In this document: piece after piece, positions 11,010 to 29,156 of the stretch | Layout: the number at the start of each line of letters is the position of its first letter | Numbering within the stretch: the first letter of the stretch is position 1 | Assembly: GCA_035299065.1 (NCBI GenBank) | Contig: DATGXI010000095.1 | Coordinates: 12,299 to 76,298 of the forward strand | DNA: 64,000 nucleotides | DNA from: Flavobacteriales bacterium | Lineage (GTDB): Bacteria > Bacteroidota > Bacteroidia > Flavobacteriales_D > UBA2798 | Direction: 5' to 3' | The notes under the pieces: model-generated | Told to the model about the DNA's origin: nothing | Databases searched by the model: none | What the model saw: the letters and a program-made list of their open reading frames with translations, nothing else | Translations under genes and position numbers: made by a program

Positions 11010-11224
11010 CTGCAAGCGATAGAGCCGATACCCCGGAACAAAAAGTGAAAGAAAAGCCGGATACTGCGCTACGCCTGGATCATAAGTAAAAAAATAGTTT
11101 ATAGCTGCTCAATCAGGAACGAGGCTTTTCTTTCACTTTTTGTGAGGAGTAAAGGCGAAAGCGCGGCCCGCGAGGAATTTCGAGTGCTGAATTTCCAGTT
11201 TCGAACTTTGCCGAGGGGGTGCAG
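11010..11224 (+). ncRNA. Structured intergenic element, copy 1 (Flavo-1-like core)
   Basis: Core AGCGATAGAGCCGATACCCCG...GAGGAGTAAAGGCGAAAGCGCGGCCC; perfect 21-bp inverted repeat at 11038-11058/11123-11143; closing CTGCA/TGCAG. Homologous to 26975-27157. Confidence 0.6.
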
Positions 11225-25313: not shown

Positions 25314-25709
25314 TTATAAAGCAGCATTCAAAATTGTTTTTCCTTTTAGTGCTTTAAAGCGAAAATTCATATCCATTTTAAGCGTGCTTACAAAACAGTC
25401 AAGCAACTCCTTTTCAATTGGCTTTAATTCACACTGAATTTTGCTTTTTACGCGTTTTACCTTTTTGATCATACCATCATTGCCTATGGCAAGGTTAGCA
25501 AAGAATTCAAATTTATTGCATTTGGCTGAGTCAATCAGGTTTTCCATCATGGGCATACAGGTGCCGTTTCCGTTACCGCTCCATTCCTCTATAAACATAT
25601 TCCACTCTTGCTTTTGCTCAGTGGTGAACTGCGATGGGTTAATTTTTTTTTGCCCCTGTGACAAAAAGGTTGCGCAGCAAAAAGAAAAAAAGAAGATGAA
25701 CCTGGTCAT
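25314..25709 (-). CDS. Small exported Cys-containing hypothetical protein
   Basis: Signal peptide; its start overlaps the stop of the upstream lipoprotein gene (TAATG). Confidence 0.6.
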   Translation of the reverse strand: MTRFIFFFSFCCATFLSQGQKKINPSQFTTEQKQEWNMFIEEWSGNGNGTCMPMMENLIDSAKCNKFEFFANLAIGNDGMIKKVKRVKSKIQCELKPIEKELLDCFVSTLKMDMNFRFKALKGKTILNAAL

Positions 25710-26893
25710 TATTTTTTTCTGGCATAAATCATTACGCCTTCACCGTAATTTCCAATGTACGATATGCGGAATGGTAAACGACCATACTTTTTACTTGCTT
25801 CAAGGTCCTTTTTCAATTCCTTTTGCAGGCACCAGCTTAAGTCATCAATCACCATTGAATATTTGCCATACAGGGTCATGTCCATTTTTTCCTTGTCAAA
25901 ATATTTGTATGGCACACCCGTGTCGTCCTGCAAAATTTTATTGCTGTTAAGCACAAGACCACGCATTACCGCAAAGTTGGTATTTTGCAATACGCATGAT
26001 GCGCTTTTCATATAGGAAACACGTTTGCCAAAACCGTCAACAAAAGCACTAAACTCCTTGTGGTTGTTCAAATACTCGTCACTTGCGTTTAATTTAAAGT
26101 AATAAGCTGCTTTTTTTACGGTACGGTCAGGTGATAAAAATTCAATTTTAACTGCAGTAATTGCTGTATCGGAAACTTTTACACTGTCACTCATACGTAC
26201 GGCTGTTCCATCAGTATCAATGTAGACATTATATACATCACAAATGGTGTGATTTGTGCGTGCCATCATGTACAGCATCATGTGCACCATGCCGTTCAGG
26301 TTAGCTTTACCAAAATCGCCACTCATGTGGGACGTCACAAAATATCCTGCTTTGTTCAGGTATTTCATGGATTGGCGAATGCCGTCAAAATAACGTTTAA
26401 GGGCATCGTCCTTTAACTCACGAAAATCACACATTTTGCCTTTTGGTTCCAGGCCAAGCATTACGTAATTGGTTGCGTTTGGAAAAAATGCGTTGCCAAA
26501 TAAAAAATCGGGGCCCGATAGCGGGTAAAAACACAGGCTGTTGTCACTTGTATCGGTAATTTTTTCGGTCTTGATCCATTTTGAAATGGGCGCAAGCATA
26601 CTGTCAGTTGTACGTTTCCAGCTGGTGTCGGCAAACTGCATGTGCGTTGCATAAAAATCTTTTGCCTGTATGTCTTTACAATATTTTAATGTTGGCTGGC
26701 CTGCAATGAGTTTTGAAAAGTCGGTCCAAAGGGTATCAAACGCCAGCTCTGGCTTTTTGATTTCAGCTTTAGCTGTTGTATCACCTGCCGGTTTTTCCTT
26801 TGTTCCCGTATCTTTTTTTTCATCACCTCCACAGGAAGTGATAAACAATGCTGACGCAAGTGCCAGCCCAATAAATTTGTTAAGCATATTCAA
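25709..26893 (-). CDS. Hypothetical lipoprotein
   Basis: Lipobox LFITS-C; 394 aa; FYPLSGPDFL and YMKSASC motifs; function not recognised. Confidence 0.75.
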   Translation of the reverse strand: MNMLNKFIGLALASALFITSCGGDEKKDTGTKEKPAGDTTAKAEIKKPELAFDTLWTDFSKLIAGQPTLKYCKDIQAKDFYATHMQFADTSWKRTTDSMLAPISKWIKTEKITDTSDNSLCFYPLSGPDFLFGNAFFPNATNYVMLGLEPKGKMCDFRELKDDALKRYFDGIRQSMKYLNKAGYFVTSHMSGDFGKANLNGMVHMMLYMMARTNHTICDVYNVYIDTDGTAVRMSDSVKVSDTAITAVKIEFLSPDRTVKKAAYYFKLNASDEYLNNHKEFSAFVDGFGKRVSYMKSASCVLQNTNFAVMRGLVLNSNKILQDDTGVPYKYFDKEKMDMTLYGKYSMVIDDLSWCLQKELKKDLEASKKYGRLPFRISYIGNYGEGVMIYARKK

Positions 26894-26974
26894 AACTATG
26901 GAATAATATTAAAAGCTAACCTACCGTATGATAGAATAGAATAAACGAATAATTGTTAGCTACGGGTTATGCCC

Positions 26975-27157
26975 GCGTGAGGGATGGAAGTGGAAAGCCC
27001 GCACCCTGAAGTGAGAGCGTCAATGAATTAGCTTAAATAGCAGTGATAAATTTAGGCGCTTTACTTCAGGGGAGGACTTGGAACGTACAGCCCGACCCCA
27101 CGAGGGTAAGTGATTTCAAGTTTAAGATTTCAAATTTAAGATTGAGTGGGGGCACGC
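26975..27157 (+). ncRNA. Structured intergenic element, copy 2 (Flavo-1-like core)
   Basis: Core AGGGATGGAAGTGGAAAGCCCG...GAGGACTTGGAACGTACAGCCCGACCC; long hairpin at 27004-27021/27055-27071; closing GCGTG/CACGC. Confidence 0.65.
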
Positions 27158-27175: not shown

Positions 27176-28162
27176 TTATACCAACTCGGTAAATTTTTCG
27201 GGAATTGAAATAAGTGTTTCGCGAATCTCATCAATGTTATTAGAGGTAACCAATTTCATACGCGTGTCCTTAAAATGCGGTACGCCTTTAAAATAATTGG
27301 TGTAATGCCTGCGCATTTCCAAAATTCCAAGTGTTGTACCTTTCCATTTTACTGAAAACTCCAGGTGTTGGCTTGCGGCCTCAACCCTGTTGGCAATGGT
27401 GGGCGGTGGTAAATGCTGACCGGTTTTTGCAAAATGTTTTATTTCATTAAAAATCCACGGGTAACCAATGCTTGCGCGGCCAATCATAATACCGTCAACT
27501 CCGTATTGCTTTTTGTATTCAATTGCTTTTTCAGGACTATCAATATCGCCATTGCCAAAAATGGGAATTTTTATACGTGGGTTATTCTTTATTTCGGCAA
27601 TCATTGTCCAGTCGGCACTGCCTTTATACATTTGTGCACGTGTGCGACCGTGAATGGTAAGGGCTGCAATGCCCACGTCCTGCAGGCGTTCGGCTACTTC
27701 GGTTACGTTTTTTGTTGTGTCATCCCAGCCAAGGCGGGTTTTTACGGTCACCGGCCGGGTTGCAATTTTTACAATTTCACCCGTCATCATGGCCATTTTT
27801 GGAATGTCCTGAAGCAAGGCTGCGCCTGCGCCTTTACAGGCAACATTTTTTACCGGGCATCCAAAATTTATGTCAATTAAATCGGGGCCGGCCTGGTCAG
27901 CAATCAACCCTGCCTCACGCATGCTATCAATGTTACTGCCATACAGCTGAATACCTATAGGGCGTTCATACTCAAAAATGTCGAGTTTTTTTTTGCTTTT
28001 AACCGCGTGCCTGATAAGCCCTTCTGAGGAAATAAATTCGGTATACATGAGGTCAGCCCCGTGCTTTTTACATACGGCCCTGAACGGTGGATCGCTAACG
28101 TCCTCCATAGGAGCCAGTAAAAGAGGGAATTCCCCGAGTTCTATATTTCCTATCTTTACCAT
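27176..28162 (-). CDS. dusB: tRNA-dihydrouridine synthase B
   Basis: LLLAPMEDVSD, IDINFGCP, VTVKTRLGWD, IHGRT and NGDI motifs. Start ATG 28162, not 28402, which would overlap the divergent gene. Confidence 0.95.
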   Translation of the reverse strand: MVKIGNIELGEFPLLLAPMEDVSDPPFRAVCKKHGADLMYTEFISSEGLIRHAVKSKKKLDIFEYERPIGIQLYGSNIDSMREAGLIADQAGPDLIDINFGCPVKNVACKGAGAALLQDIPKMAMMTGEIVKIATRPVTVKTRLGWDDTTKNVTEVAERLQDVGIAALTIHGRTRAQMYKGSADWTMIAEIKNNPRIKIPIFGNGDIDSPEKAIEYKKQYGVDGIMIGRASIGYPWIFNEIKHFAKTGQHLPPPTIANRVEAASQHLEFSVKWKGTTLGILEMRRHYTNYFKGVPHFKDTRMKLVTSNNIDEIRETLISIPEKFTELV

Positions 28163-28184
28163 TGTTCTGATACCTACCGGAACG

Positions 28185-28192
28185 CAAAAATA
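28185..28192 (-). promoter_or_regulatory. -7 promoter element for dusB
   Basis: TATTTTTG on the minus strand, 22 nt upstream of the start. Confidence 0.6.
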
Positions 28193-28199
28193 GCACATA

Positions 28200-29156
28200 A
28201 TGTCACAGGAAAGCAAAATTCCTTTTTTACGCAATTTTAACCCGGGCATGAACCTGATGACGGTGTTTAGCCTGGTTTTTTTAGGTGTTATTGTTGGCGA
28301 TCTGGTATTTTGGATGCTGGCAAAAGCATTTTGGGGTGTAAACACATTTGCTGAAAACAATGTGTTGTCAAATGAACTAACACCTTCAACTTTTGCATAC
28401 ATTCAAACCAATTACATTGTGCATGCTATTTGTGTGTTTTTGACACCTGCAACGGTATTCAGGCGGTTGATGGAATTTCCGCAACAGGATTATTTTTTAA
28501 TTCGCAGGGTTGTAACATTGAGAATGGCTGGAATTATTTTATTGGTTTTTTTAGCGTGTTTTCCTGCAGCAAATTTTCTTGTTTATTTTAACCAGCAATT
28601 GGACTTTTCATTTATTTCACCCGAAATTGGTGAGCAAATTAAGGCGATGGAAAATTCAAATGATGAATTTAAAATTCAATTGCTTGGCCAGCCCGGGTAT
28701 TCATCACTTTTCATTAACCTTGCCACCACGGCCGTGCTTGCGGCTATAGGCGAGGAACTGCTGTTCAGAGGTATTTTTCAACGCTTATTCATTAAACTAT
28801 TCAGGAACGTTCATGTTGCTGTAATTGTAGGCGCTGCCCTTTTTAGTTTTGTACATTTTAGTTATTACGGGTTTATTCCACGTTTTTTCATGGGCATGGC
28901 GTTAGGCTACATATACCTGGCAACTGCCAATATATGGTACTGCATATTTTTCCATTTCCTGAACAATGCTTTGGGCGTAACAATGGGTTGGTTAATGGGA
29001 CATGGATACGATGTAAGCTTTTTTGATTCGTTTGGTGGCGGAACAGATACTAAATGGATAGGTTTTGGGTTGCTGGTAATTGTGGTTGCGTGCCTAATTT
29101 TGATGATAAACAAGTTGATCAACAAAGAACTCATACACGAAATCAAGGAATATTAA
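28200..29156 (+). CDS. CPBP (CAAX protease-like) intramembrane metalloprotease
   Basis: IGEELLFRG, FSFVH and HFLNN motifs; multiple TM helices. Confidence 0.92.
   Translation: MSQESKIPFLRNFNPGMNLMTVFSLVFLGVIVGDLVFWMLAKAFWGVNTFAENNVLSNELTPSTFAYIQTNYIVHAICVFLTPATVFRRLMEFPQQDYFLIRRVVTLRMAGIILLVFLACFPAANFLVYFNQQLDFSFISPEIGEQIKAMENSNDEFKIQLLGQPGYSSLFINLATTAVLAAIGEELLFRGIFQRLFIKLFRNVHVAVIVGAALFSFVHFSYYGFIPRFFMGMALGYIYLATANIWYCIFFHFLNNALGVTMGWLMGHGYDVSFFDSFGGGTDTKWIGFGLLVIVVACLILMINKLINKELIHEIKEY

Follow-up and report, generated by a model that had tools for sequence, protein, structure and literature searches.

The gap between dusB and a predicted lipoprotein gene of a Flavobacteriales bacterium contains a highly structured segment, which lies at positions 26975-27157 of the window, that is, of the whole stretch of 64,000 nucleotides that was analysed. 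The earlier note on this DNA called the segment copy 2 and described a second one with the same scaffold, copy 1, in the gap between lolA and tatA. The question raised by this locus is what kind of element it is. It could be a regulator of the neighbouring genes, an RNA that acts by itself, or a repeat that is dispersed in the genome and that acts, if at all, as DNA.

Structure of copy 2 and its flanking genes

Copy 2 consists of 183 bases on the + strand, is non-coding and lies in an intergenic gap. Its + strand folds as a three-way junction, in which a closing helix (P1), a long irregular arm (P2) and a second arm (P3) come together. The minimum-free-energy fold of this strand has -68.2 kcal/mol, with z = -3.8 against shuffled sequences, and the fold of the - strand is weaker. 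The parts of copy 2, its flanking genes and copy 1 are as follows.

26975-26979, + strand: 5' strand of P1, the closing helix (GCGUG); pairs with 27153-27157 in the minimum-free-energy fold
26981-27003, + strand: 5' strand of P2, the Flavo-1 5' box GGGAUGGAAGUGGAAAGCCCGCA; agrees with the RF01705 consensus ..ccGAUuGaAGcGGAAa and has the same pairing scheme
27004-27071, + strand: arm 1, a plug-in hairpin of about 66-68 nt at the tip of P2, with the stem CCCUGAAGUGAGAGCG / CGCUUUACUUCAGGG (from sequence and fold)
27004-27021 and 27055-27071, + strand: the hairpin arms of arm 1, CCCTGAAGTGAGAGCGTC and GGCGCTTTACTTCAGGG (from sequence)
27072-27095, + strand: 3' strand of P2, the Flavo-1 3' box GAGGACUUGGAACGUACAGCCC, then the junction GA; pairs with 26981-27003
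27096-27152, + strand: P3, the second arm, with an AT-rich loop inside (from the fold)
27096-27101 and 27146-27151, + strand: the P3 arm strands CCCCAC and GTGGGG
27112-27143, + strand: 14-nt tandem repeat GATTTCAAATTTAA, 2.3 copies, within P3 (Tandem Repeats Finder, period 14)
27153-27157, + strand: 3' strand of P1 (CACGC; from the fold)
27176-28402, - strand: dusB, tRNA-dihydrouridine synthase (Pfam PF01207, E 8e-81), flanking copy 2 and outside the element
25709-26893, - strand: predicted lipoprotein gene (ORF list; N-terminus MLNKFIGLALASALFITSC), outside the element, its start facing the 5' end of copy 2
11010-11224, + strand: copy 1 in the lolA-tatA gap, 'UACCCC' subtype, with a 103-nt arm 1 and a 53-nt arm 2 (nhmmer and parsing)

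The positions that the earlier note had given for both strands of the long hairpin and of the last arm all agree with the sequence, and the 14-nt repeat that it saw enclosed by the last arm is indeed found there by Tandem Repeats Finder. The 5' strand of P2 reads GGG-A-UG-GAA-GU-GGA-AAG-C-CC and the 3' strand reads GG-A-CUU-GGA-AC-GUA-CA-G-CCC; in the fold they pair as GGG/CCC, UG/CA, GU/AC, AAG/CUU and CC/GG. P1 is followed by ACUAA in place of the usual CC(A)AA. The scaffold of copy 2 is of the canonical 'GGAAAGCCC' subtype, and its plug-ins are the 'CCCUGAAGU' hairpin at the P2 tip and the 14-nt satellite in the P3 loop. Copy 1 folds like copy 2. The two copies have the same scaffold with unrelated inserts (the hairpin of copy 1 is 103 nt), just as had been proposed.

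Copy 2 stands in a gap of 282 nt, directly before the lipoprotein gene and after dusB, whose stop codon is 18 nt from the element. Since both flanking ORFs are on the - strand, copy 2 is antisense to both genes, and this point of the earlier note holds. The lipoprotein ORF 25709-26893 has no Pfam match; a lipoprotein signal, ...LFITSC, can be read from the sequence at its start. A scan for promoters and terminators around copy 2 gave nothing above the count expected from shuffled sequences.

As a side observation, the dusB ORF of 408 aa is probably too long at its 5' end and overlaps a divergent CPBP-protease ORF at 28200-29156 (+ strand). The Dus domain begins only at residue 95 and the relatives of the ORF align only from about residue 80. 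This overlap is thus likely to be an artefact of choosing the longest ORF.

A large family of structured repeats in the genome

The genome (G000) comprises 5.07 Mb in 193 contigs. Profile searches with the two scaffold boxes yielded 93 5' boxes and 63 3' boxes, and for boxes of 21-22 nt the number of matches expected by chance is 0. A covariance model, R1, was then built from an alignment of 70 copies with the arms trimmed (A2, in which copy 1 is a row). With R1, 103 copies were found in the genome at E<=0.01, and copy 2 obtained 30 bits (E 1e-4). Both of the two copies counted in the 64 kb are real, but more than 100 exist genome-wide. We regard it as nearly certain that the segment at window 26975-27157 belongs to a family of structured intergenic repeats with more than 100 members in this genome.

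When the copies were parsed, their parts appeared in the following order: 5 bp of P1, an A, the 5' strand of P2, arm 1 (0-140 nt), the 3' strand of P2, arm 2 (0-110 nt, closed by P3) and the 3' strand of P1. CC(A)AA usually comes after P1, CC being present in 40 of the 53 copies with an unambiguous closure. The length of the element ranges from 73 to 260 nt with a median of 163. Three scaffold subtypes were distinguished, namely 'AUAGCCC' (34 copies), 'UACCCC' (24) and the canonical 'GGAAAGCCC' (14). Most copies are only 60-80% alike and are not near-identical; the nearest to copy 2 are those on C123, C120 and C152, at 69-77% identity.

The pairing was then examined over the 70 copies of A2. 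In this alignment 91% of the cells were paired, compared to 72.7% in shuffles and 34-44% in slid controls, and 281 cells had changed on both sides, compared to 90 in shuffles; the observed value was reached by 0 of 500 shuffles. RNAalifold independently recovered P1, P2 and P3. P1 covaries over the 70 copies, with pairs such as CUGCC/GGCAG, CCGCC/GGCGG, CGGCC/GGCCG, GCGUG/CACGC and CCGCA/UGCGG. The pairing statistics of P1 (100%) are partly circular because its 3' strand was located by complementarity; copies without arm 2 are exempt from this, the 3' strand standing there at a fixed distance, and it still covaries in them. The P2 pairs of copy 2 covary within the family. At the base of P3, columns 74-88 are CG in 39 copies and GC in 21, and columns 73-89 are UA in 29 and CG in 22. 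All three helices are backed by compensatory changes. Two non-Watson-Crick positions are conserved, A-G at 13/67 (with four G-A swaps) and C-A at 27/53. The purine-rich internal loops, GAGGA included, are invariant, and the unpaired positions of the + strand are rich in A and G.

We also considered whether the + strand could be marked as the functional one by its stability, since its fold is the more stable one in 55 of 72 copies. This sign was rejected: the advantage of the + strand was -3.6 kcal/mol in the observed copies and -4.9 kcal/mol in composition-matched shuffles, whose asymmetry is thus equal or larger, so that the greater stability of the + strand is due to base composition alone.

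The inserts follow a simple plan. It is nearly certain that there are two fixed plug-in points, the P2 tip and the P3 loop, which are either empty or filled with a module, a hairpin or a satellite, from a small recurrent set. Compact copies have nothing at the position of arm 1, and other hairpin modules are found there elsewhere in the family. The hairpin of copy 2, which had been called completely different, is unrelated to that of copy 1 but is not unique, for at least 8-12 further copies have its stem CCCTGAAGT...ACTTCAGGG, and the orientation of this stem class does not vary among them. A loop module, GATCCTTCG..CCTCAGGAA, is essentially confined to these elements with stems that differ, and occurs in both orientations (11 vs 6) and in either arm; this distribution suggests rearrangement of the arms at the DNA level. 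In about 20 copies an arm is filled by AT-rich heptad or 14-nt arrays, and the 14-nt repeat of copy 2 is one of these heptad-type AT-rich satellites.

AT-rich heptads such as (GATTTAA)n, (AATTCAT)n, (GAGATGT)n and (CTGTAAA)n are also dispersed in intergenic DNA genome-wide. One heptad pattern had 190 matches, of which 168 were outside the Flavo-1-type elements. In the window, examples of these satellites are seen at 27112-27143 and 11182-11209.

Identity with the orphan motif Flavo-1

Flavo-1 (RF01705) was described in 2010 with its function unassigned and was graded as a probable RNA (Weinberg et al. 2010, PMC2864571). It is among the most abundant Rfam 'sRNA' families (PMC9029176). In the transcriptome of F. 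psychrophilum, many Flavo-1 matches are untranscribed, and matches are found in sense as well as in antisense to transcripts (PMC9723704).

In the window, no Rfam family, riboswitches included, was matched at gathering scores. The gathering threshold of RF01705 is 42 bits; in a permissive scan copy 2 obtained 12.7 bits, which is below this threshold, in a wrong or shifted register. The RF01705 model misses copy 2 because of its long insert of about 66-68 nt. When the irregular helix of copy 2 was read by hand, it fitted the RF01705 consensus and its pairing scheme. On the whole genome, RF01705 gave 16 matches, one above the gathering score (48.2 bits) and 10 further full-length ones at 27-35 bits; other members of the 'GGAAAGCCC' subtype of copy 2 obtained 27-35 bits with this model. 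All ten full-length sub-threshold matches and the above-threshold match have 20-50 extra bases at the hairpin tip. An annotation by RF01705 only overlooks nearly all copies in this genome, just 1 of about 103 being above the threshold. Among genomes of the class, RF01705 matches 128 of 401, and the nearest relatives are Flavobacteriales/Bacteroidia MAGs.

The element and Flavo-1 share an irregular hairpin with stems of 2-3 bp split by conserved purine-rich internal loops, the consensus 5' G-AU-D-GAAG-Y-GGAAA... and 3' ...UUG-N-A-N-CG-N-A-N-AGC, the phylum, the multi-copy habit and the lack of a gene association. They differ in that the Rfam model covers a 76-nt core only, whereas here a 5-bp helix, which covaries, closes the core, and a second arm adjoins it. 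In addition, exchangeable inserts of 0-140 nt stand here at the hairpin tip and the second arm, and three scaffold subtypes occur side by side in more than 100 copies per genome. The literature that we searched describes neither the closing helix and the second arm nor the two positions for plug-ins; the side-by-side occurrence of subtypes, a count of more than 100 copies and what happens at shared sites were likewise not found in it. In our view, the conserved scaffold can be identified almost with certainty as the orphan Rfam motif Flavo-1, extended by P1 and P3 to a three-way junction. The family is a member or an extended variant of a known orphan family, and copy 2 itself is an ordinary member.

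In a complete genome of another family (G251, contig C1), RF01705 matches were seen in head-to-tail arrays with a spacing of 230-330 bp, for example at 3069838-3070654, 2565316-2566401, 4097860-4098441 and 2371917-2373583. This array organisation differs from the singletons of the present genome.

Genomic context and orientation of the copies

Nearly all copies (89 of 94) were outside ORF calls. As to their contexts, 21 of the 94 were in tandem sense, 31 in tandem antisense, 27 in convergent and 12 in divergent positions. Convergent gaps make up 14% of the background, and the elements are enriched there. The neighbouring genes were varied, with no fixed one among them. The placement is independent of orientation, as had been claimed from the two copies of the window, with a preference for gene 3' ends. 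In another genome, G359, an antisense bias was found (15 tandem antisense vs 4 sense).

When the two flanking genes were excluded, the strand of the element was that of the local gene-strand majority within ±5 kb in 63 of 93 copies of G000, and in 32 of 36 where at least 80% of the coding length was one-stranded. The genes themselves agree with the local strand majority in 57-64%, and a Fisher test on tandem contexts gave p = 1.7e-5. This gene-block orientation is not a family-wide rule, because it is reversed in G359, where the agreement was 10 of 28, and 1 of 12 in one-sided blocks. Successive copies on a contig of G000 tend to alternate in orientation.

A polarity with respect to the replication strand, as in IS200/IS605 elements, was tried and rejected on the skew, on contig pairs and on complete genomes. 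The raw GC skew agreed with the element strand in 54 of 80 copies. GC skew is dominated here by a coding-strand effect of ±0.065, and with the corrected skew the agreement was 47 of 80; the corrected GC3 skew does not track gene-strand bias. Pairs of copies on one contig had the same orientation in only 18 of 46 cases, and the complete genomes G359 and G481 gave no two-block strand pattern.

Orthologous sites in related genomes

R1 gave 24 and 38 matches in two congeneric MAGs, which are fragmentary and 79% complete, and 0-6 matches per genome elsewhere in the order. From the two congeners 30 elements were taken, 16 of them with both flanks on one G000 contig. For at least 10 of about 15-16 mappable congener loci, an element is present at the same site in G000. 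The elements of such pairs are 49-71% identical, compared to 75-84% for the flanking genes. The partners often differ in P1, scaffold subtype and arms, and also in P2; both partners still fold and score with R1. Mobility is slow, and most sites are common to the genus.

Not all sites are shared. One element of the congener G001 is missing at the same site of G000, and a 96%-identical twin of it is present at another G000 locus. At that one empty G000 site the intergenic DNA is unalignable, and compact copies are about 96% alike across the species. As a check, the earlier note had suggested comparing the dusB-lipoprotein and lolA-tatA gaps in close relatives, and both sites turned out to be eroded or empty in the congeners. 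That is, only a degenerate 3' half is left of the orthologue of copy 2 in G002, and the site of copy 1 is without an element in G001 and has an eroded one in G002. At 80 more distant dusB loci, no element was found at any.

Two side observations were made in these gaps. A 49-nt block at window 26915-26963, directly 5' of copy 2 on the side of the lipoprotein gene, differs from that of the congener G002 in one base, and the remainder of the copy 2 gap is unalignable with G002; this block probably serves the lipoprotein gene as promoter or leader. In the lolA-tatA gap of G001, which has no element, the place of copy 1 is taken by a terminator-like hairpin and a heptad repeat, (CCTTATG)x3 (L164 1330-1360).

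Search for a mobiliser and for marks of mobility

A link to a RAYT/TnpA(Y1) gene had been proposed. The sole Y1 transposase gene (Y1_Tnp, PF01797; IS200/IS605-type) of the genome is located at C46:9865-10161, and its flanks (G000:C46:9600-10300) contain the hairpins GACTACGGAGAGGAGTC and GCGACTCCTCCGGAGTCGTA, GACTCC..GGAGTC, a palindrome type that occurs only twice in the genome. These hairpins are unrelated to the element, and the proposed link fails. No mobilising or binding protein was found. Inverted doublets of the element number only two, and the genes that they bracket, one for a metallophosphoesterase-like protein and one for a 148-aa protein, are unrelated.

The terminal pairing consists of the 5-bp P1 only, and no further terminal inverted repeats were defined. 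No direct repeat is seen in the flanks, which have AAAYY 5' of the element and CC(A)AA 3' of it. From the flank profile and the one empty site, with its unalignable DNA, no target-site duplication was definable.

Carriage by phages was considered and rejected. No match was obtained when 50,697 phage records were searched by blastn with copy 2 and one compact copy. In IMG/VR an IUPAC pattern was matched at 12 sites; all of these are in high-GC coding DNA and due to chance, and neither R1 nor Rfam recognised any of them.

Nature of the element

The earlier note preferred a dispersed REP-like or non-autonomous element, or an ncRNA, over a riboswitch, and our results support this preference: the genome has 103 copies in both orientations, 80 dusB loci are without an element, and the congener sites are eroded. 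A point in favour of a cis-regulatory leader or riboswitch for the lipoprotein gene or for dusB is the position of copy 2 between the two genes, directly upstream of the former and downstream of the latter, in a gap of 282 nt. However, copy 2 is antisense to both genes, the copies stand beside unrelated genes in all four orientation classes, the window has no Rfam riboswitch, and the element is degenerate in G002 though the adjacent 49-nt block is conserved. The element is not a cis-regulator, since none of the 80 more distant dusB loci carries one. The copy number and the antisense orientation refute this explanation, to which we give practically no probability.

On balance, we think it somewhat more likely than not that the element is a slowly turning-over, non-autonomous folded-DNA repeat of the REP/ERIC/BOX kind that is read by a putative protein. 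We infer its action at the DNA level, its partner protein and the way in which new copies arise. The single-stranded fold, rather than the primary sequence, would be what is preserved. This fold would most likely form in DNA, either transiently single-stranded or as an extruded cruciform, and would be recognised by the putative protein. New copies would be rare, would persist at a site beyond the age of the genus, would exchange or lose arms and would finally erode. Such an element would not regulate dusB or the lipoprotein gene. Several results count against this reading: no mobilising or binding protein was found and the sole Y1 gene is unrelated, neither a target duplication nor terminal inverted repeats other than P1 could be defined, and a replication-linked exposure of one strand is unsupported. 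The purine-rich loops, the CC(A) tail and the compensatory changes at orthologous sites, moreover, are equally typical of a functional RNA. An element at the RNA level is possible, at a clearly lower probability. It could be a stand-alone sRNA gene of a very large family, or a read-through module that serves as a 3' exonuclease barrier, a processing site or a protein sponge. The strong covariation in three helices, the invariant purine-rich internal loops with A/G-rich unpaired + strand positions, the CC(A)AA tail after P1 in most copies and the fold kept at orthologous loci despite 49-71% identity are in its favour, as is the rating of Flavo-1 as a probable RNA (Weinberg et al. 2010, PMC2864571). 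On the other hand, no Bacteroidota promoter (TAnnTTTG, -7 box) stands at a fixed upstream distance, where only a T-rich tract and AAAYY are seen, and no U-tract comes after the element. There are more than 100 copies, some with arms full of AT-rich satellites. No sense bias to upstream genes is found here and G359 has an antisense bias, F. psychrophilum matches are sense or antisense with many untranscribed (PMC9723704), and in the congeners the sites of both window copies are eroded or lack the element. A purely selfish, MITE-like repeat, in which the fold would serve transposition only and the folds at shared sites would result from replacement or gene conversion by active copies, seems unlikely to us. 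It would account for presence and absence among the congeners, for the 96%-identical compact copy at a non-orthologous locus though the genes of these species are only about 80% identical, for the eroded orthologues of both window sites, for the different subtypes at shared sites in different species, and for a copy number that varies strongly between genera. Nevertheless, no associated transposase, terminal inverted repeats or target duplication was found, most copies within the genome are not near-identical, and at least 10 of about 15 sites are kept across the genus with intact folds.

The folded-DNA repeat can be given a more specific form, which we consider doubtful. We speculate that Flavo-1-type elements may be locus-resident three-way-junction DNA modules with two sockets, selected at each intergenic site across the genus, in which the fold is kept while sequence, subtype and arms are replaced, and which may be read by a putative Bacteroidota protein, for example in supercoiling, at transcription boundaries or in recombination. 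If this is true, the gene-block orientation (32 of 36 in G000) would be the first positional rule for a 16-year-old orphan motif. The dynamics among the congeners, where sites persist, folds are kept by compensatory change, arms are swapped and some copies erode, argue against both a riboswitch and a recent burst of MITEs. The practical message is modest: the element by dusB is an ordinary member of an orphan family and no regulator of its neighbours.

Comparison with known systems

The element resembles REP, BIME and REPIN sequences in being high-copy, intergenic and hairpin-forming, in its enrichment at gene 3' ends and in convergent gaps, in its long life within a lineage, and in the proposal that the active form is a single-stranded DNA fold (Nunvar et al. 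2010, PMC2817692; Bertels and Rainey 2011, PMC3116915). In contrast to the REP palindrome of 20-40 bp, it is a three-way junction of 73-260 nt without a GTAG/CGTC tag, and its copies are singletons, whereas REPINs are inverted doublets. It also differs from the REPIN-RAYT system, as the repeat does not flank the one Y1 gene of the genome.

ERIC/IRU of enterobacteria and BOX of pneumococci are, like the present element, modular structured intergenic repeats of about 100-200 nt that occur in either orientation, with extra blocks inserted at fixed internal points. They are not known to have a dedicated transposase, and neither is the element here. They are imperfect palindromes or linear A-B-C modules and not three-way junctions, they are unrelated to the element in sequence, and they have been reported to be largely transcribed with the neighbouring genes.

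Finally, integron attC sites should be compared. The copies described here are singletons between ordinary chromosomal genes (dusB, lolA, tatA); unlike attC sites, they are not at cassette boundaries and have neither an adjacent integrase nor an R/L box organisation. The likeness to attC is in the design, that is, a folded single-stranded site with a conserved frame and a variable centre that is kept paired by compensatory changes.
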